A stretch of 64,000 nt of DNA from Candidatus Pacearchaeota archaeon (GCA_018303805.1 JAGVXL010000001.1:506164-570163), one strand, 5' to 3'; shown: positions 1-49,563, counted from the stretch's first letter. Notes: a model not told the origin generated them from the letters alone. Numbers and translations are program-made.

Positions 1-3000
1 CAGGACAACCCTCTAATGAGATTTACTTGCCAGGATATTATTGCTCTGCCGCTTTGAAAATAAATCTGAATAGTGTTAATTATCCTGAAATCAAGGCAAA
101 AATAAGAATAGGAGATGATGAGTTCTGGCTTGCAAAAGGCCAGAGGTTCCTTGAAGAGAACTGCTGGGTTTCAAATATAGAGCAGAATATTATTGGAGGG
201 GGAAAAGTTACAATAAACTGCAAGGATTCAACTCCTGCAACATTAGAGATAGACCCGCCAAGAGCAAGATTATTGGTTAAGGATTCTGCAACAAAAAAAG
301 AAGTTGCATCAGATGATTTTGCTGTTAGGGATGAGCTTGTTTCAGGCAAGGGCATTTATCTCGGCTATGTTGGAAACACAGAAAAAGCATTGTCAACACA
401 ATTAAAACAGCTTAATCAGGATTTTGTTGTTATTGTGAAGCCAGAAGCAGCCACTGAAGATTATTTTAACAACCTGAATATAGTTGTTAACAGCATCCTG
501 AAAGGCAGGAAATATTCTTTTTTCAATGTTTTCAAAACCTTGTTGAAGGGCTCTGTGAAATTTGGGGAGGATGTTAAATGCTTAAGCGGTTGCGATGCCA
601 GCTTGGAGAAAGGCTTGCATGACTATCTAGGCAAGGATGCACTTTTCCAGATAGTTTCAACATCTGGAACAGGGCAGGGCACAGCATTTCAAGGTTACCA
701 TTTCACATTTGACAAGACAGTCGGCTCTGTTGAAAAGAGATATGAAAGTGAGGACTTTGGCAAGCTGCTTGAGAAATATTTTGCTGATGCAGCAGAAAAT
801 TACAAGAAGGTTGCAGAGCACTATGGCGATGAAAAGAAAGAGCAGCAGGAAGGGGCAAAGCCAACTTATTATGGCGCTGATGCCCTTTATGAAGCGGCAA
901 AACTTGCAGCAGAGCTGAAAAAATTCAAGACCCAGGAAGATCTGCTTAACAGAATAGTGAAGGATTATCCTGATTCAGGTGTTGCAGAAAATGCAAAACA
1001 AGAGCTTGAGCTGATGAGAATACATGACAGAAGCAAGGCATCTGCGTTTGTTTACACTGCAGGAGGAAGCTATTACACAATTCTAGAGGATATAAAGGAA
1101 GTTGGCAGGGATGACAAGTCTGTTGATTTAACAGTTGATTCAGCTACAGAGACCTATAGCGAGAATGAGGTAGTAAAAGGTACACTCGCTGTTGCAGGAA
1201 TTACAGAGGAATATGTTGATTTTTCCTATCAAAACAAGGAAGGTGATTTAAGGACTTTGAAGATTAAAGAAAAAGATTCTGTCAAGACATTATTCGTTAA
1301 AGACATAGAAACAGACAAGGAAATTTCAGTTAGTTTGAGAGTCAGCAAAATCAACCTGAAGAAAGAGGCATCTGTAACCTTAGAGCCCATGATTGCAAGA
1401 GCGCAGACACAAACTAATTTCACTTTTAAAATGGGGATTGAAAAAAGGGCGATAAAGCTAAGCCCTGAAAAAACCCAGGAGCTGATTAACGAACTTAATG
1501 ATTCAATTGCAAAATGGGAGACAATCGTGAACAATCTTGGCAATCTTGTCAAGACATGGAAGGGAACGTGCTTTGCCGGCTCTGCCTATCTTGTTGTCAA
1601 GAATTTCTTCAGCAACATGGGCGGTGGCAGCATGGCAAGAACAGAAGCCATGAATCACTGGAAAACGATATGCAAGGGCGAGATAGCAGAAGCAAAGAAG
1701 CAGGGCGTGGAGATGAGTTTCCATAAATGCTACACCAATCATGCAGATGAGATTGACGCTTCTGTAGGAAAAATAAAGGAAATTTATGCTGATGTGAATA
1801 ATGATGTGGGGAGCATTAAAAACATGCCAAATGTTTTGGAGACGCAAAAAGGGACATTTGGTATTTTTGATGAAAAATCAACAAATCAAGATGCATGCCT
1901 GAAAGCTTCACAGGAATATTTCAACAAATATCAGAATACAGTATTTAAGTCAGGAGAGAAAGGAAAAGACGACATTAAGGCAAGTGAATTTTTAAGCGAG
2001 GACAAAATAACTCTGCTCAGGGAAAACAACAGGATATATTGCGATGACGTGAAGGACATTCTTTTCAGCTTCAAGCTGCAGCAGGAATGCACAAATGGGG
2101 ATTTTAAATCTAAAAAAGAATACAAACAGTTCTGTGAGCAGATAAATTCAAGGCTTTACAGTGATATGAAGGAGTGGAAGACTATATCCTCCGAGTTGCA
2201 AAAAACTAAAACTGCACAGGAATTATTGGATAATGAAGGCATTCATGCCCGCATAATTTCTTGGGGCGGGGGTTTTGATAATCCCCTTCCTATCAAGAAA
2301 GAGGATTTGATCCCTAAAAAAGATTATATAAAATTGGATGAGAAGGGAATAAAAATTTCAGAGAAGCAGGAAGCAGCGATGATTACCTCAGCTTTTGGTG
2401 AATACATCCTTATATTTGAGCCTTCTGGTTCTGATTATAACATAAAAAAAGTTTATAGTATAGAAACAGAAAATAAAAAAATAATTTCAGCTAAAGAGGA
2501 GGAAAGAGGAAAAAAATTAGTCGACTTAAAGATTTCTTTTGCAAGGCTTACAGAGCCAGGGCAATACTCAAACCCCTATAAAAATCCTGATGTGAAATAT
2601 TGGGAATCAGGCCCTTACAAAGGGCTGCCTGCTGTCCTGCCCCTCGGAGAATATGCCAGCAAGGGATGGTATGTTGCAACTCAGCCAGCTAATCTTGGCA
2701 CTCAAGCAACCAAAGCATTCGCAGAATCAGGAATGCCAGTAAGCTACTGGATAAGCAATGTTAATGGCAATGGCTTGGAAGAATGGGAAACAGCAGGACA
2801 TGGAGATGACAAACCCTATTATATGTTCAGCATGCAGACAGGAATGCCTCTTGAATTTGAGTTTTCCGGATTAGACAAGCAGGAAGCGGCAAAAATGGTA
2901 AGCCTTGCAAGGCAATACCTGCTTGATGCCTCAAAGCAATACACAGGCAAAGGAATGGTGACAGTTGGCGGCAAGTCATTTTTTAGAGGCAAGCCAGCAG

Positions 3001-6000
3001 TAGCAATTCCCCAGTATGAATGCGAGGATTTTATGTCACCAAAGGAATGTAATATTATGTTCAATCTTTGCGACCCTGTTTTATGCCCTTCAAGCAGATG
3101 TGACTTTGGAGGCAAGTATCCTGTCGCTGATGTTGTCCAGACAGGAGTGATAGGAAGCATTGCTTTATGCCTGCCTAATATAAGAGAAGGCATAGCAGTC
3201 CCGATATGCCTGACAGGAATTCATGCTGGCTTGGATAATTTTGTGATGATACAGAAGGCAGTTCGTGACTGCCTGCAGGAAAACTTGAAAACAGGAAGAA
3301 ATGTTGGAATTTGCGACCAGATTAAATCAATCTATTTATGCGAGTTCTTCTGGAAGCAAGCTGCGCCTCTGGCAAAAGTTGGAATATCAAGTTTGCTTGA
3401 AAGTTTGTCTGGCAAATCTAATAATGGCGGCGGGGAATATTTGTTTGTGCAGGATTCCTGGCAAAAGGCCCAGGATTCAGTTAATTATTTCACGAATTAT
3501 TATGGTGTGAATGCATTCAAGGCATTCCAGGCAAGAAGCACAGAGGCAGCGGGAACAGAGGTTTGCAAGGCATGGGCTTCAGTAAGATACCCAACAACAG
3601 CAGGCATGTTTGGCAAGCTGCTTGCGCCTGAATCACCAACACAGTTTTATGCTACATTTTCAGAGGATGTTTTAACAGAAGCAACTCTCCCCCCAACTTC
3701 CCATTACAAGGTGTATTTCAGGATTTATGCAGGCAATGACCAGGGTGTTTATTACAATGTTTATTTGAAAGGGCAGCCGCAGACAGAATATTATGCCCAG
3801 ATGCAGCAGATAGCAGTTCCTAACGCAGTTGGATATATACCACAAGGCGAGCAGGTTGACAGGGCAACTGATTTTACAGCCCCCTCTGGATACAAGGAGT
3901 TGTGTGTCAGAATAAATGCGCAGGAGGAATGCGGGTTTGGGCAGGTAACAACCTCTTTCTTTATGAATGAATTAAAGGATACATATCTAAAGGAGCAGGC
4001 AACACAGCCAATCACAAAAGAAAGTGACTGCATAGAGGGAAAGCCAAGCATAACCCCTGTTGCATTAAATCTAAACCTGCAGGCAGGTGTTTCAGAAGCA
4101 ACTCAGCCAGCAATATACGAGAGGGGCATAATAAGAATATGCGCAACAGACAATCCGAGCATGACAACACAGCCAGACAGGTGGAAGCAAGTTGGCTATT
4201 GCGGGGACAAGAAGACAATATGCTGGCTTGACACAATCTCATTGAATAATAGTTTTAAGGATAAAGGCTTGTTGGGAGAAACATTGGACAAGGCAAAGGA
4301 AATGGCAAAAGAGCTTGAAGAGGGTAAGATGCTAGGTGAGGAGGAAAGTGATAAGGCATTGCAGGGTGCAGGAGAGAACAAAGAAAATCTGGTAGGCAAG
4401 GAAGAAGTTGGAAAAGCAAAAACAGAAGGAGAATTGGACAAGCTTCTCTCCAAAGAAAAACTGCAGTTTGCTGATGCAGATACGGTTGAGGCAGACATTG
4501 ATGATGCAATCAAATCTACAGTTTCACAATATGAAGAGGTAATAACTAAATCCGCCCTTAACGCAAAGAAGGCAGAGGCAAGATTTGAGTTCGCAGGAAT
4601 TTATGGGAAAATAACAAGGCTGATTTATGAGAACAAGGTTAGAAAGTCTGAAGGTGAAGAAGAAGCAGCTGTCGGAGCAGAAATAAACCTAGATAAGAGT
4701 AATGAGATAACAGAAGTTTTTTATGAAAGAGACGAGAAAACTATTTTATTTGATGGCAAAAAATATTATGTTTCTGTAGATCTTTCAGATTTGTCTGGAA
4801 AAACAAGAATTAGTATTTCTTTAGACTCTAAGCTAATCTTCCCACAAGTGAATCAGAGGCACATTTATAATTTAGATGGCAAAGGGGGGAATGACGTGGA
4901 GGTTACTTGGGATGGATTTTCAAAAACTCCCAGCATCAGGGTTACCTTAAAATTTGAGAGAATAAGCAAGATTAAAGAAAAGAAATGCAGCGATTGCAAT
5001 AAACTTTTTTCATCTTGTAGCATGGATGAATGCCATGATATGGGGGACTGTTATGTTAATTACAAGACAGGTGTGATTAGTAGCAAGTATGATTGTTTGG
5101 ACTGCAATGCAAACCTACCTTACAAACCTCTTTGTTCTGATTTCAATACTCCTGAAGAATGCGAGGGGAATAAATGCGATGTGATAGGATGTGCATGGGT
5201 AAATGGGGAATGTCAAATTAAAGTGGAGACAGAAGAAAAGAAACTTGCTCAAATAAAAACAACTGCAGAGCAGTGTACAAAATGCGGCGAGGGGCTGCTT
5301 AATAGATGTGATAGAGAAGAATGCCATAACCTAGGAAATTGTTATCTTGAATTTGCTAGTTTGATTACCTATCAATGCATAAACTGCAATGATAAAACAA
5401 AATGTTCTGCTTTTGACGACTATAATGAATGCAAGTTCAACAAATGCAATCTTGATTGCGGATGGACTTCTTCTGGATGTGTTCAATCTAGTTCTTCAGC
5501 TGATGAAAAAAAAAATTTGAATGAGGCTTCTGAGGATACAGCAGAAACTCCGGATAATGTCATCTGCATGGATATAGATGCAGAAGAAAATCCAGGAACA
5601 ATAACAGGCTCTGCTGTTTCAAACAACGAGGTTTGTATTATAATAGGCAAGGGCTACAGCGCTTCTGATATCCTGCAGTCAAAATCTGAAAGCACCTTCC
5701 AGAGCAGGCAAACTCTTTATGCCTTGGTTGACAAGTATGCAAAGCAGTACAATGTCAATTTCAATCTTGTAAGGGCATTCATAGAGGTTGAAAGCAGCTG
5801 GGATACAAAGGAACAGTCAAGCACAGGGGCTTATGGCTTGATGCAGATTAAGGATACAGTTATAAATGATTTCAAAGAAGGGGGGGCATGCGCAAAGTCA
5901 ATAGGGATATTATCCATAAACAAGTATAATACAGAGCAGAATATACAGGGCGGCGTCGCATATCTCGCCTGCAATATGAAAAGATTCAGCAATCTCGGGC

Positions 6001-6773
6001 TTGCTATTGCAGCTTACAAGGAGGGCCCTACTTATGTCTCAAAATACTGCAACACAGATGTTTCTTCCTGCAAAAATCCTTTGTTCAAACAGAACGGGGA
6101 CACTGCAAAGGCATATGTAAAGAAAATCGGGAAAGCATATTACTACACCGCTTCATTAGGTTCTCAGGCAAATGCAGCCGCCCCAGCTGTGAAGAAGCCT
6201 GCCAATAAAAAAGTTGTGATTGATGCAGGACATGGCGGCACTGACCCGGGTGCTGTAAACAGCGGGGGTATAAAGGAAAAGGATATTAATCTGCAAATTG
6301 TAAAAGAGTTGAGAAGCATTCTGGAAAGCAAAGGATATACTCTAAAGATGACAAGAGATGCTGACATCTCGACATCTCTCGCTTCAAGAGTTAAGACGGC
6401 TAATGATTTTGGCGCAGATATTTTTGTCAGCATCCATATGAATTCCGCATCATTGGATGTTGATGGCAAATACTGCTCTGCAAATGGTACTGAAACATTT
6501 TATTACAGGACTTCCACAAAAGGAAAGGAATTTGCACAAACAATACAGGAGAATGTTGTAAGTGCAATAGGCAATGCTAATAGGGGGATAAAAAAGGATA
6601 CAGAATCTGCAGAAGGAAGTTTATATGTTCTCAAAAATACAAACATGCCTGCTGTGCTTATTGAGCTGGGATTTATCTGCAATAAAGAGGAGATACAAAT
6701 TCTTTCAAATTCCCTTGAACAAGAGCAGATTGCCGCAGCAATCTCTCAGGCAGTTTCAACATATCTCTCATAA
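1..6773 (+). CDS. Giant Cys-rich protein with C-terminal lytic transglycosylase (SLT) and N-acetylmuramoyl-L-alanine amidase (Amidase_3) domains; 5'-truncated by window edge
   Basis: Frame is open from nt 3 (GQPSNEIYLPGYYC), so the track start at 27 is artificial. SLT motifs VES, GAYGLMQ, NIQGGVAYL, AAYKEG (~5710-6150). Amidase_3 motifs VVIDAGHGG, EKDINL, FVSIHMN, VLIELGF (~6205-6770). Confidence 0.92.
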   Translation, partial: GQPSNEIYLPGYYCSAALKINLNSVNYPEIKAKIRIGDDEFWLAKGQRFLEENCWVSNIEQNIIGGGKVTINCKDSTPATLEIDPPRARLLVKDSATKKEVASDDFAVRDELVSGKGIYLGYVGNTEKALSTQLKQLNQDFVVIVKPEAATEDYFNNLNIVVNSILKGRKYSFFNVFKTLLKGSVKFGEDVKCLSGCDASLEKGLHDYLGKDALFQIVSTSGTGQGTAFQGYHFTFDKTVGSVEKRYESEDFGKLLEKYFADAAENYKKVAEHYGDEKKEQQEGAKPTYYGADALYEAAKLAAELKKFKTQEDLLNRIVKDYPDSGVAENAKQELELMRIHDRSKASAFVYTAGGSYYTILEDIKEVGRDDKSVDLTVDSATETYSENEVVKGTLAVAGITEEYVDFSYQNKEGDLRTLKIKEKDSVKTLFVKDIETDKEISVSLRVSKINLKKEASVTLEPMIARAQTQTNFTFKMGIEKRAIKLSPEKTQELINELNDSIAKWETIVNNLGNLVKTWKGTCFAGSAYLVVKNFFSNMGGGSMARTEAMNHWKTICKGEIAEAKKQGVEMSFHKCYTNHADEIDASVGKIKEIYADVNNDVGSIKNMPNVLETQKGTFGIFDEKSTNQDACLKASQEYFNKYQNTVFKSGEKGKDDIKASEFLSEDKITLLRENNRIYCDDVKDILFSFKLQQECTNGDFKSKKEYKQFCEQINSRLYSDMKEWKTISSELQKTKTAQELLDNEGIHARIISWGGGFDNPLPIKKEDLIPKKDYIKLDEKGIKISEKQEAAMITSAFGEYILIFEPSGSDYNIKKVYSIETENKKIISAKEEERGKKLVDLKISFARLTEPGQYSNPYKNPDVKYWESGPYKGLPAVLPLGEYASKGWYVATQPANLGTQATKAFAESGMPVSYWISNVNGNGLEEWETAGHGDDKPYYMFSMQTGMPLEFEFSGLDKQEAAKMVSLARQYLLDASKQYTGKGMVTVGGKSFFRGKPAVAIPQYECEDFMSPKECNIMFNLCDPVLCPSSRCDFGGKYPVADVVQTGVIGSIALCLPNIREGIAVPICLTGIHAGLDNFVMIQKAVRDCLQENLKTGRNVGICDQIKSIYLCEFFWKQAAPLAKVGISSLLESLSGKSNNGGGEYLFVQDSWQKAQDSVNYFTNYYGVNAFKAFQARSTEAAGTEVCKAWASVRYPTTAGMFGKLLAPESPTQFYATFSEDVLTEATLPPTSHYKVYFRIYAGNDQGVYYNVYLKGQPQTEYYAQMQQIAVPNAVGYIPQGEQVDRATDFTAPSGYKELCVRINAQEECGFGQVTTSFFMNELKDTYLKEQATQPITKESDCIEGKPSITPVALNLNLQAGVSEATQPAIYERGIIRICATDNPSMTTQPDRWKQVGYCGDKKTICWLDTISLNNSFKDKGLLGETLDKAKEMAKELEEGKMLGEEESDKALQGAGENKENLVGKEEVGKAKTEGELDKLLSKEKLQFADADTVEADIDDAIKSTVSQYEEVITKSALNAKKAEARFEFAGIYGKITRLIYENKVRKSEGEEEAAVGAEINLDKSNEITEVFYERDEKTILFDGKKYYVSVDLSDLSGKTRISISLDSKLIFPQVNQRHIYNLDGKGGNDVEVTWDGFSKTPSIRVTLKFERISKIKEKKCSDCNKLFSSCSMDECHDMGDCYVNYKTGVISSKYDCLDCNANLPYKPLCSDFNTPEECEGNKCDVIGCAWVNGECQIKVETEEKKLAQIKTTAEQCTKCGEGLLNRCDREECHNLGNCYLEFASLITYQCINCNDKTKCSAFDDYNECKFNKCNLDCGWTSSGCVQSSSSADEKKNLNEASEDTAETPDNVICMDIDAEENPGTITGSAVSNNEVCIIIGKGYSASDILQSKSESTFQSRQTLYALVDKYAKQYNVNFNLVRAFIEVESSWDTKEQSSTGAYGLMQIKDTVINDFKEGGACAKSIGILSINKYNTEQNIQGGVAYLACNMKRFSNLGLAIAAYKEGPTYVSKYCNTDVSSCKNPLFKQNGDTAKAYVKKIGKAYYYTASLGSQANAAAPAVKKPANKKVVIDAGHGGTDPGAVNSGGIKEKDINLQIVKELRSILESKGYTLKMTRDADISTSLASRVKTANDFGADIFVSIHMNSASLDVDGKYCSANGTETFYYRTSTKGKEFAQTIQENVVSAIGNANRGIKKDTESAEGSLYVLKNTNMPAVLIELGFICNKEEIQILSNSLEQEQIAAAISQAVSTYLS

Positions 6774-7382: not shown

Positions 7383-7769
7383 ATGGGGGATATAAGATAC
7401 TTCATTAGGGATTATGTTAATTCTAAAAGGGCCCCAGATAGAAAATCCCAATTATTTATACATGAGGAAAATAGCGATTCAGCGCAAAAGCACGCACAAT
7501 ATATTTTGGATGAAATGCTTAAATGGGGTAGGCATAGGTTCTGGGAGATACAGCATTTTAATCCATTTTGTCACGGTGAATACAATTCAGAAAATATCGG
7601 TCCATCTGAAGGGACTGCCTCGTTGGAGGAACACATAGTGGGCATAATCTCTGATTTTGATAAGGACCATTGGAACAATATGATGAATCCGGCGTGGACT
7701 CATATTGGTGCAGATGCTGCATATGACAATGCTGCAGGCCTGCTTATTCTTGTGCAGAGGTTCTGCTGA
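7383..7769 (+). CDS. CAP/SCP-domain-like protein
   Basis: Motifs ENIG, HWNNMMNPAWTHIG and C-terminal VQRF are typical of the CAP superfamily. Confidence 0.6.
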   Translation: MGDIRYFIRDYVNSKRAPDRKSQLFIHEENSDSAQKHAQYILDEMLKWGRHRFWEIQHFNPFCHGEYNSENIGPSEGTASLEEHIVGIISDFDKDHWNNMMNPAWTHIGADAAYDNAAGLLILVQRFC

Positions 7770-12900: not shown

Positions 12901-12999
12901 TGGCTGTGGGCGGAGTTGAACCGCCGACATCTGCCTATCCCGAATCAATGAAGCAATGATTTCATGAGAGCAGCGCTCTGCCAACTGAGCTACACAGCC
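12901..12999 (-). tRNA. tRNA with CAT anticodon (elongator Met or Ile2), 26-nt intron at 37/38 (12937-12962)
   Basis: Acceptor GGCTGTG/CACAGCC-A; loop CT-CAT-G|intron|A; T-loop TTCAACT. Met versus agmatidine-Ile2 not resolved. Confidence 0.88.
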
Positions 13000-18909: not shown

Positions 18910-18923
18910 TTTCATTTTAAAAA

Positions 18924-19145
18924 TGGGCCCGACAGGATTCGAACCTGCGACTTCTTGCTTTCTTTCCTTCTATTGTAGTTTTTCTACCTTCCTAGAGTTT
19001 CTTTTTCCGCGAAAAGCAGGCAATCCTCGCCGAAGCGAGCATCACGGGCTTTTCGGGGCACAGGAAATCTTTGATTTCCTCTGTTTCTCTAAAAAGAAAC
19101 TGTGGATAGAAGGCAAGCGCTCTATCCAAGCTGAGCTACGGACCC
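18924..19145 (-). tRNA. tRNA-Arg(TCT) with 147-nt intron at 37/38 (18960-19106)
   Basis: Acceptor GGGTCCG/CGGGCCC-A; stem CTTGC/GCAAG; loop CT-TCT-A|intron|A; T-loop TTCGAAT. Confidence 0.9.
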
Positions 19146-19341
19146 TTGATGATATCCAGCTGTTTCAATTTAAAAAACTTGTTGCGTAGCATGGCGAAAG
19201 CTTTTTAAATTTCCTTGTGTTAAGAGGAACAATGAAAAAGTCTCTTAGGACACTATTAGTGCAGGTCAGCTTGCTCGTTCTTGTACTTGTAGTAGTGCTC
19301 TTATAGGGGCCTCTTCATTTTTTCTTTTCAGGAGGTTTCTC

Positions 19342-19722
19342 ATGGCACTAAACAATTTACTTGGCTGTATAATAAGAATGGAAGAAACGGATAGATGCAG
19401 ATGCGGCTATATGTATGAGATAACCGTAAATTCCGAAGGAAGAGAAAGGACATTCTACTTTGATTTGAATCATCGCTTTAAAATAGAGGGGGAAAGGATA
19501 AAATTCGAGAAAAATAGAAGCCCTACTAAAAATGCAGAGGGGGATTACAAGAACAGCCCTATTGAAACAGTAGTTATAGGCATTATGCCGAATTATGGTG
19601 GTTTTAAAGAGGTTGGAGAGATAAAGAAAGCGCTTCAAGCAGCATATATTGAACATGAGAAGGAATGGAAGAAAGAGCCAAAATCTAATTTGGATTTAAA
19701 TAAAAGAGAATTATTACTCTAA
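19342..19722 (+). CDS. Hypothetical protein
   Basis: ORF with RBS-like GGAGG upstream; no motif. Confidence 0.55.
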   Translation: MALNNLLGCIIRMEETDRCRCGYMYEITVNSEGRERTFYFDLNHRFKIEGERIKFEKNRSPTKNAEGDYKNSPIETVVIGIMPNYGGFKEVGEIKKALQAAYIEHEKEWKKEPKSNLDLNKRELLL

Positions 19723-19753
19723 AATCCGAGAATTAATTCTCTGGGATTCTAAA

Positions 19754-20875
19754 ATGAGATTTATAAAAATTTTTGACACCACATTGAGGGACGGCGCGCA
19801 GTCAGCATCTGCTATGCTTAAAATAGGAAACGAGATAAAGGTAGCGGAGCAGCTCGAAAGGCTTAATGTTGATATGATTGAAGCAGGCTTTCCTGCATCA
19901 TCAAAAGCAGAGCAGGATATTGTTGGAATAATCGCTAGAGAAAGTAGCAAAACAATTGCAGCATTGGCAAGAGCAAAAAAAGAGGATGTTAAAAAAGCAT
20001 GGCATTCCATACGCAGGGCAAAAAAGCCAAGATTCCATATTTTCATTGCCTCTTCTGATGACCATATTAAAAATAAACTGAATATGAGCAGGCAAGAGGT
20101 GGTTAATGCGGCTGTTGAAAGCATAAAATATGCAAAAGAAATCAGCAATGGAAATGCCGAAATAGAGTTTTCTGCTGAAGATGCCACAAGAAGCAATGAA
20201 AGATTTTTATTTCAGTTGTATAACGCAGCAATAAAGGCAGGAGCAGGGATAATAAATATTCCTGATACAGTTGGATTTTTTCTGCCAAATGAGTTTTTCA
20301 GGATGGTCCGTAAAATAAGGAAAAGATTTCCTCTGCCAGAAGTAAGCGTGCACTGCCACAATGATTTAGGATTAGCAGTTGCAAATTCAATTGCAGCAAT
20401 ACATGCAGGAGCAAATCAAGTACACTGCACTATGAATGGGATCGGTGAAAGGGCAGGGAATGCTGCTCTTGAAGAAATTGCCACTATCCTGACTGTAAAG
20501 AAAAATTCTGTTAATGCCTGCAGCAATATTAAAATAGGGGAAATTTATAAAACTGCACAGATAGTGAGCAAATATTTTGGCGTGGGTATACCAGTATACA
20601 AGGCAGTAATAGGGGCAAATGCTATGAAGCATGAAGCAGGAATTCATGTTCAGCATGTTAAGGGCTATGAGGCATTTAATCCAGAATATATTGGGGCTGA
20701 ACGGGAGATAATCATCGGCAGGCATTCTGGTATCCATACTGTTCTTGAAGTTGCCAGAATTAACCGCATCAATATAGGAAAAGAAGAGGCAATTGCATTA
20801 TTAAATGAGATTAAAAAGAAGGGCTTAAAAATAAGCCAAAAAGATTTTAAGAGGTATTTAGAACAAAAAGCATAA
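19754..20875 (+). CDS. leuA: 2-isopropylmalate/homocitrate synthase family (DRE-TIM), short form without C-terminal regulatory domain
   Basis: IFDTTLRDGAQ, IEAGFP, FSAEDATRS, IPDTVG, HCHNDLGLAVANS, GERAGNA, HEAGIH. Confidence 0.88.
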   Translation: MRFIKIFDTTLRDGAQSASAMLKIGNEIKVAEQLERLNVDMIEAGFPASSKAEQDIVGIIARESSKTIAALARAKKEDVKKAWHSIRRAKKPRFHIFIASSDDHIKNKLNMSRQEVVNAAVESIKYAKEISNGNAEIEFSAEDATRSNERFLFQLYNAAIKAGAGIINIPDTVGFFLPNEFFRMVRKIRKRFPLPEVSVHCHNDLGLAVANSIAAIHAGANQVHCTMNGIGERAGNAALEEIATILTVKKNSVNACSNIKIGEIYKTAQIVSKYFGVGIPVYKAVIGANAMKHEAGIHVQHVKGYEAFNPEYIGAEREIIIGRHSGIHTVLEVARINRINIGKEEAIALLNEIKKKGLKISQKDFKRYLEQKA

Positions 20876-49448: not shown

Positions 49449-49563
49449 TGGGCCTAAGAGGATTTGAACCCCTGTCTCTCGGTTTCTTTCGTTTTTCTTC
49501 GAGGTCTTTTTTTAAAAGAGCTCTCCGAAGCCGAGTGCCCTATCCAGGCTAGGCGATAGGCCC
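49449..49563 (-). tRNA. tRNA-Arg(TCG) with 41-nt intron at 37/38 (49484-49524)
   Basis: Acceptor GGGCCTA/TAGGCCC-A; stem CTCGG/CCGAG; loop CT-TCG-G|intron|A. Confidence 0.9.

Follow-up and report, generated by a model that had tools for sequence, protein, structure and literature searches.

The giant gene described here lies at the beginning of a 64,000-nucleotide (nt) stretch of the genome of a Candidatus Pacearchaeota archaeon (GCA_018303805.1, JAGVXL010000001.1), hereafter called the window, which covers positions 506164-570163 of a 575,132-bp single-contig genome. An open reading frame (ORF) scan showed that the plus-strand frame 3..6773 stays open through the 5' edge of the window. When the frame was extended upstream, the complete ORF was found to run from genome position 505398 to 512936 and to encode a product of 2,512 amino acids (aa), P0002, with its true start codon 766 nt 5' of the window (genome 505398, corresponding to L002:10399). 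A first-pass annotation, made from the sequence of the window, had correctly described this ORF as open at its 5' edge, and its size estimate of more than 2,248 aa proved too low. The gene and the parts of its product are listed below; residue numbers refer to full-length P0002, except for "fragment residues", which number the in-window part of the ORF.

1..6773, plus strand: giant gene (ORF walk in the genome); the window part comprises codons 257-2512 and the stop codon
3..4241, plus strand: conserved scaffold (alignments); residues ~40-1669, of which the window holds 257-1669
3012..3632, plus strand: most conserved part of the scaffold; residues 1260-1466
4242..4631, plus strand: Glu/Lys-rich linker, onset of the variable tail; residues 1670-1799
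4632..4979, plus strand: beta-rich tail module, present in the closest relatives only and poorly modelled; residues 1800-1915
4986..5225, plus strand: Cys-rich repeat 1, 33% identical to repeat 2 (E 9e-13); residues 1918-1997
5271..5492, plus strand: Cys-rich repeat 2; residues 2013-2086
5727..6059, plus strand: SLT / GH23 lytic transglycosylase domain (PF01464, Pfam); residues 2165-2275
6213..6758, plus strand: Amidase_3 N-acetylmuramoyl-L-alanine amidase domain (PF01520, Pfam); residues 2327-2508

Two domains, both at the far C-terminus, are all that Pfam yields in P0002, and they are those that the first-pass annotation had placed at the end of the ORF. SLT matches with E 1.5e-17 (63.7 bits, cut-off 21.3; fragment residues 1909-2019) and reaches 70 bits in the six-frame genome search; Amidase_3 matches with E 1.8e-55 (188 bits, cut-off 27; fragment residues 2071-2252, model positions 1-173 of 174). 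Profile searches of the genome identified P0002 as the carrier of its sole SLT and its sole Amidase_3 domain. The motifs quoted in the first-pass annotation (VES, GLMQ, AAYKEG, DAGH, E, SIH and IELGF) are all present and align residue for residue with solved enzymes. In the SLT domain, IEVES holds the catalytic E2186 (nt 5790-5792), GLMQ occupies residues 2201-2204, and AAYKEGP (AYKEGP at 2260-2265) has Lys in place of the Asn of the AYNxG motif; in the alignment with the Neisseria lytic transglycosylase (5mpq/5o1j) these motifs correspond to RQES, GLMQ and AGYNAGP, respectively. The amidase is collinear from end to end with CwlV (1jwq), CwlD (7rag), 4rn7 and AmiC2 (5emi), whose Zn ligands and catalytic Glu fall on H2333 (DAGHGG, nt 6231), E2348 (KEKD, nt 6276), H2401 (VSIHMN, nt 6435) and the catalytic E2477 (LIELGF, nt 6663). 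The Zn-binding and catalytic residues of the amidase are invariant in all 14 archaeal and all 21 bacterial rows of the alignment, as are the catalytic Glu and the other active-site residues of the SLT domain in 10 of 10 archaeal relatives that combine SLT with the amidase.

Structure prediction gave a similar picture. The AlphaFold2 model of residues 1800-2512 has a predicted local distance difference test (pLDDT) score of 88-98 across both enzymes (residues ~2134-2512), with ~88-97 for SLT and mostly >90 for the amidase, and shows none of the collapsed active sites that had been raised as a possible objection. The modelled amidase has an alpha/beta fold that superposes on 4rn7 with a template modelling (TM) score of 0.91 and a root-mean-square deviation (rmsd) of 1.3 A, and on CwlV 1jwq with a TM score of 0.93 and an rmsd of 1.5 A, while the modelled SLT domain, which is alpha-helical and lysozyme-like, matches Slt (5o1j, 5ohu), MltF and MltE at E ~1e-5 in Foldseek. 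Both enzymes are apparently intact in domain identity, catalytic residues and confidently predicted folds, and both are predicted to be active. The best amidase matches are of the compact, ~180-aa CwlV/CwlD/AmiC2 type, and alignments with E. coli AmiA (8c2o), AmiB (8c0j) and the Bartonella enzyme 3ne8 are split into two stretches, which suggests that P0002 does not have the autoinhibitory or regulatory insert of the AmiA/B/C type; if so, the amidase would be constitutively active. Since the domain scores below the NCBIfam equivalog cut-offs of CwlD, AmiA, AmiB and AmiC, we regard it as a member of the Amidase_3 family and not as an ortholog of any of these four. P0002 shares folds, catalytic residues and Zn residues with the bacterial CwlV, CwlD and AmiC2 amidases and with family-1 lytic transglycosylases (Slt70, LtgA, MltE); unlike in these bacterial enzymes, both activities are fused in one archaeal giant chain, and identity is only 24-38%.

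Some GH23/SLT-fold enzymes act on chitin-like glycans. The substrate of the P0002 tip could accordingly be something other than murein, such as chitin-like or other GlcNAc polymers, glycans of an archaeal host or pseudomurein, or the two domains could serve as binding modules only. Pfam detected no canonical peptidoglycan-binding domain (LysM, SPOR, PG_binding or SH3) in P0002, and Strock et al. 2025 (PLoS Biol, PMC12352652) give the same caveat for catalytic domains without wall-binding modules. We nevertheless consider these alternatives very improbable: Amidase_3 is specific to the MurNAc-L-Ala bond, its pairing with SLT and the M23, VanY and YkuD tips of orthologs indicate murein chemistry, and the full conservation of the catalytic residues argues against a role in binding only.

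The premise of the first-pass annotation that archaea do not make murein held for this genome, in which a profile search found no Mur_ligase_M. Marker genes score the genome as 77% complete even though it is a single contig, a score typical for DPANN. Because no Mur ligase is present, the archaeon should make neither murein nor pseudomurein; remodelling of its own wall was therefore rejected as a function, and the most plausible substrate is the wall of a bacterium. Such a wall could also serve as food. The metabolically poor cell would in this case digest wall debris of dead bacteria for amino sugars and amino acids, a use that would fit the very small genome of 575 kb and the suggestion that peptidoglycan is an amino-acid source for Pacearchaeota, made in the relevant passage of Takamiya et al. 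2024 (PMC11537232). However, AnmK, Peptidase_S66/LdcA and a NagB-type deaminase were not detectable by profile searches in this genome (77% complete by markers), so that the anhydro-muropeptides made by SLT would have no recognizable catabolic route, and a 2,500-aa scaffold is a costly means of releasing soluble enzymes. The wall scavenging that the first-pass annotation had offered as one option thus found no support, and we judge it quite improbable.

Bacterial-type enzymes in an archaeal genome could also result from an assembly chimera with bacterial sequence, or derive from a prophage as a tail lysin or endolysin. The enzyme domains do match endolysin and lytic-tail-protein families in PHROG, and the closest non-archaeal amidases come from Firmicutes. 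But the giant gene is one unbroken ORF in a 575-kb single contig, whose lone run of Ns is >440 kb distant, and the SLT and amidase segments lie inside the normal range of the genome in guanine-cytosine (GC) content and codon usage. The same architecture recurs at 35-63% identity in independent assemblies (P0003, at 60%, P0004, P0005, P0006, P0009 and P0027), at one locus amid ribosomal-protein genes. A chimera or a recent horizontal transfer, the first of which the first-pass annotation had itself named as a caution, was rejected on these grounds. In a tree of amidase domains the archaeal copies are all set apart from the bacterial ones (support 89/96), a pattern that fits a single ancient acquisition and does not fit contamination. 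The genome itself is archaeal by its gene content, and several of its tRNA genes contain introns. The giant gene is flanked on one side by genes for S3Ae, L44e, GINS, SRP54 and FtsY and on the other by S8e, TFB, an MBL-fold RNase Z-like protein and the tRNA-splicing endonuclease; immediately downstream follow a tRNA, a small CAP-like ORF or LSM, and S8e. These housekeeping neighbours are syntenic across genomes and no phage genes lie nearby, which led us to reject a prophage or phage tail lysin origin. PHROG matches are limited to the enzyme domains; the scaffold has no PHROG or BFVD match. Taken as one explanation, artefact or foreign DNA is hardly credible.

The N-terminus of the complete product, MQETLKKFAGNKIAVGTLVAAFVIVLAMIYVKAQA/YS (here and below, the slash marks the putative cleavage point), is a signal-like segment. 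The sole strongly hydrophobic stretch of P0002 spans residues ~12-30 and is followed by VKAQA/YSYSP, an AXA-type signal-peptidase site, and there is no other hydrophobic span in the remainder of the protein. Orthologs begin with textbook Sec signals (e.g., ...ACAVVNA/QQ and ...FVSA/QA), and the N-terminus is hydrophobic in 114 of the 121 giant-family members. Because of this lone hydrophobic stretch, the AXA site and the Sec signals of the orthologs, we read P0002 as exported and not anchored: the Sec-type signal is probably cleaved and does not persist as an N-terminal anchor. The apparatus had been described as tethered in the first-pass annotation, a description that is not borne out by a segment which ends in AQA/Y and, like its counterparts in the orthologs, resembles a Sec signal of the cleavable kind. 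Any tether would need to come from a conserved, pilin-like partner.

This partner, P0243 (644 aa, L002:8462-10396), stops 2 nt ahead of the start codon of the giant gene. A partner ORF of 606-644 aa abuts or overlaps the start of the giant gene in every neighbourhood compared. The orthologs of P0243 are 41-73% identical and share an N-terminus of the form K/R-A/QVT(I/L)F (the second slash marking the putative cleavage point), followed by a hydrophobic helix, which we take to fit the archaeal class III (prepilin) signal pattern. The partner has no match in Pfam, NCBIfam or PHROG. A gene for a prepilin peptidase was found by profile match outside the window, ~17 kb upstream of the giant gene:

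Genome C1:487964-488341, minus strand: prepilin peptidase (Peptidase_A24)

P0002 belongs to a large archaeal protein family. A full-length search recovered at least 181 clusters of proteins of 1.6-3.1 kaa, the named ones of which are from Pacearchaeota, Nanoarchaeota or an "archaeon", and when the core (residues 1250-1670) was searched exhaustively, the family came to 1,007 representatives clustered at 50% identity, of which 896 matched at E <= 1e-30. The core is present in 88 of 401 sampled genomes of the phylum; within the same order, 27 of the 29 genomes have it, all but one of them with a single match. The enzymes are distributed differently. An SLT domain anywhere in the genome was found in 14 of the 29 same-order genomes, and 20 of 120 listed relatives of P0002 carry one; for Amidase_3 the count is only 16 among 151 genomes of the order, with about seven cases located inside a giant ORF. 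SLT and Amidase_3 are accessory relative to the scaffold. Murein-type lytic transglycosylases are commonplace in this archaeal class beyond the giant proteins: in the phylum sample, 202 of 401 genomes have SLT, often in 2-5 copies and mostly in ORFs of 200-1,000 aa.

For alignment, the 121 family members (P0002 and the 120 listed relatives) were divided into three smaller alignments. All 120 relatives share a scaffold of ~1,650 aa with ~30 invariant cysteines, past which the tails range from 94 to 1,456 aa and are not conserved. At the heart of the scaffold, residues 1260-1466 form a Cys-rich, partly hydrophobic centre with the signature CxDFMSPxxC..NxCDPVxCPSSRC..GSIALCLPN..VPxCLTG. This is the most conserved segment of the family, with invariant Cys, Pro and Gly and two hydrophobic stretches, yet it is the worst region of the AlphaFold2 model and has no structural match. 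The scaffold parts on either side of it are modelled as beta-rich domains with pLDDT 80-90. No part of the scaffold matches Pfam or NCBIfam. The tail modules ahead of the enzymes, including the two Cys-rich repeats, model poorly as well, and residues 1800-2030 gave no usable AlphaFold2 model.

The first-pass annotation had proposed a survey of orthologs for swapped C-terminal effectors, and such swaps are indeed found. The precomputed Pfam annotation of the 120 listed relatives gave the following tips:

SLT + Amidase_3: 6 of 120
Amidase_3 alone: 5 of 120
SLT alone: 12 of 120
PF07759, with or without SLT: 2 of 120
Peptidase_M23: 2 of 120
VanY: 3 of 120
YkuD: 1 of 120
Trypsin_2: 1 of 120
LRR_4: 2 of 120
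nothing recognised: about 86 of 120 (~70%)

A local search placed SLT and amidase always in the C-terminal tail of the relatives, with the amidase at the extreme end. One genome of the same order (G106) provides an exception, as its SLT domain (C7:16802-17164) is N-terminal to the core (18914-20191) in one 2,558-aa ORF; enzyme modules are thus not confined to the C-terminal tip.

Across genomes, the locus keeps the order partner, giant, LSM, S8e, TFB, MBL and tRNA endonuclease. At this syntenic position the giant ends in SLT + Amidase_3 in the window and in a locus of the same genus (L004), in no recognizable domain in L007, in M23 in L008 and, at a further locus, in VanY. The compared giants are orthologs at one locus, and their tip has been exchanged in place. 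In a mobile and defence block at L004:15496-19878, which is absent from the window, genes for an InsA/rve-like transposase, an EcoRI-type methylase and a GmrSD/HNH nuclease lie between the giant and LSM/S8e.

A sister genome (L003) carries a two-gene version. Its giant, P0007 (2,205 aa), aligns to residues 23-2101 of P0002. Residues 2109-2510 are matched by a separate 414-aa protein, P0125, which has a signal peptide of its own and whose gene lies 15 nt downstream in a different frame. The fission point falls directly after Cys-rich repeat 2. Because the enzyme module is either fused to the scaffold or a neighbouring secreted protein, scaffold and enzymes would be expected to act together (Rosetta-stone argument).

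Such a stand-alone secreted SLT + Amidase_3 form would also suit an antibacterial weapon, in which the protein or its released tip lyses competing bacteria in the manner of a bacteriocin and is not used for docking to a host. Secreted archaeal peptidoglycan hydrolases are experimentally bactericidal (PMC12352652), predatory Woesearchaeota are put forward in the corresponding passage of Vigneron et al. 2022 (PMC9723730), and the diversification of the tips resembles arms-race turnover. However, bacteriocins are patchy and plasmid-biased, whereas this scaffold of >1,600 aa is single-copy, syntenic and present in nearly all genomes of the order; lysis of Gram-negative bacteria from outside requires passage of the outer membrane, and the lytic tip is missing from most scaffolds. 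We therefore regard a weapon as unlikely.

In layout, the family is comparable to polymorphic toxins of the Rhs and CdiA type, which likewise combine a long conserved N-terminal part with C-terminal enzymatic tips that are exchanged at one locus. There is no sequence or fold relationship, and the tips of the P0002 family are wall hydrolases and not intracellular toxins. Pfam gave no match to Rhs/CdiA-like families in P0002, and no immunity gene was seen directly downstream of the giant. In a cell without murein, an immunity gene would be unnecessary.

Instead of a weapon, we consider it likely that P0002 and its pilin-like partner constitute a Sec-exported surface apparatus whose tip makes cuts in bacterial murein, in the glycan as well as in the peptide part, in order to dock onto or breach a bacterial cell. 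The target would presumably be a living bacterial host or prey. The protein may be divided into three parts: a lineage-conserved, disulfide-rich scaffold of ~1,650 aa, a variable stalk consisting of the Glu/Lys-rich linker, the beta module and the two Cys-rich repeats, and the C-terminal two-enzyme tip. The giant would be co-transcribed with the conserved 644-aa partner and probably works with P0243. SLT would cleave the MurNAc-GlcNAc glycan bond, leaving 1,6-anhydroMurNAc ends, and Amidase_3 would strip the stem peptides off MurNAc, so that both jointly could open a local hole in the bacterial peptidoglycan. Between lineages, the tip might be swapped to suit the envelope of the contacted cell, which in the present case would be a murein-walled bacterium. 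The large wall-breaching apparatus envisaged in the first-pass annotation survives in part: an exported giant with two intact-looking enzymes is present, but the enzymes are an accessory tip, and the protein is a member of an already published family (PMC8204110, PMC9723730, in their passages on these proteins) rather than a special case.

Several observations weigh against this docking or breaching function. About 70% of the scaffold relatives have no recognizable murein hydrolase, and a Pfam scan of ten long "no-domain" tails left nine of them without a match, the remaining one having a sub-threshold match to Phage_lysozyme (GH24). As ~70% of the relatives carry the scaffold without such an enzyme, the apparatus does not depend on murein cutting, the core function of the scaffold is not murein cleavage as such, and many members may have non-bacterial targets. 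The AlphaFold2 model of scaffold residues 1100-1700 reaches a mean pLDDT of 67, and of only 30-50 in the centre (1260-1466). Searched against PDB and BFVD with Foldseek, it found nothing at E < 1e-3 and generic beta-sandwiches only. The signal peptide of the giant and the pilin signal of the partner are putative assignments from sequence pattern, and in P0243 itself residue -2 of the putative prepilin site is N and not K/R.

We also put forward a broader reading tentatively. The scaffold and its co-transcribed partner may be a two-gene surface machine, near-universal in the order and with a new fold, which perhaps sits on a type IV pilus-like fibre or at its base and presents interchangeable, envelope-specific "warheads". 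The conserved centre (residues 1260-1466) might then engage the target membrane, and the tips found in a community (SLT, amidase, M23, VanY, YkuD, GH24-like or unknown) could reveal, for each Pacearchaeota lineage, the type of cell that it contacts, whether bacterial or other.

Giant DPANN transglycosylases are said to have been first noted by Rinke in 2013 and by Castelle in 2015. To our knowledge, no hosts of Pacearchaeota or Woesearchaeota have been identified, and none of these archaea has been brought into pure co-culture. In their passage on fam00969, Castelle et al. 2021 (PMC8204110) describe giant extracellular murein-like lytic transglycosylase proteins of up to ~3,000 aa in Pacearchaeota and Woesearchaeota and propose attachment to bacterial hosts, an idea that is repeated in the passages on a "large lytic murein transglycosylase" in Vigneron et al. 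2022 (PMC9723730) and on bacterial attachment in Takamiya et al. 2024 (PMC11537232). We infer from the description of fam00969, and from the match of P0002 to P0047 (E 3e-283), a homolog from the Pacearchaeota genome RBG_13_33_26, that P0002 is a further member of this family. Going by that description, the two agree in lineage, size class, export (predicted for P0002), the SLT/GH23 domain and the proposed binding or degradation of bacterial walls. P0002 differs in that an Amidase_3 domain follows SLT, whereas the published descriptions, in these passages, give a lytic transglycosylase domain only. The same passages make no mention of the fixed locus, the partner gene, the exchange of tips (amidase, M23, VanY, YkuD, trypsin or none) or the fused and split states. 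Orthologs are already titled "N-acetylmuramoyl-L-alanine amidase [archaeon]" at NCBI.

The modular archaeal peptidoglycan hydrolases of Strock et al. (PMC12352652), among which those of a haloarchaeon were shown to kill a bacterium, offer a second comparison. Like P0002, they are archaeal, secreted, bacterial-type wall hydrolases that are taken to be aimed at bacteria, and the same study singles out Nanoarchaeota as rich in such hydrolases. They are, however, of ordinary size and combine a catalytic with a recognized wall-binding domain. P0002 has no such binding domain and would fail that filter, and its enzymes ride on a scaffold of ~2,100 aa.

A surface protein that is conserved throughout an order and bears a murein-specific tip provides one of the rare hints, at the level of sequence, that bacteria and not other archaea are what some of these lineages contact physically. 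P0002 itself adds little beyond what is published, but it is a clean and complete single-contig example, with full length, signal peptide, partner and both enzymes intact. The family-level picture of a fixed locus, a conserved partner, tip exchange in place and a fused or split enzyme module provides a concrete route to the host question.

Two minor observations concern the remainder of the window. The small CAP-like ORF downstream of the giant gene has no N-terminal signal, and an ORF of 128 aa without a Pfam match occupies the equivalent spot in L004. ARAGORN, which gives only two intron-less tRNA-Ala genes, misses three intron-bearing tRNA genes that are matched by Rfam.

7383-7769, plus strand: 128-aa ORF between the giant gene and S8e, with a weak CAP/SCP match (PF00188, E 1.1e-4, 23.4 bits, cut-off 21.1)
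12901-12999, minus strand: intron-bearing tRNA gene (Rfam hit of 99 nt)
18924-19145, minus strand: intron-bearing tRNA gene (Rfam hit of 222 nt)
49449-49563, minus strand: intron-bearing tRNA gene (Rfam hit of 115 nt)

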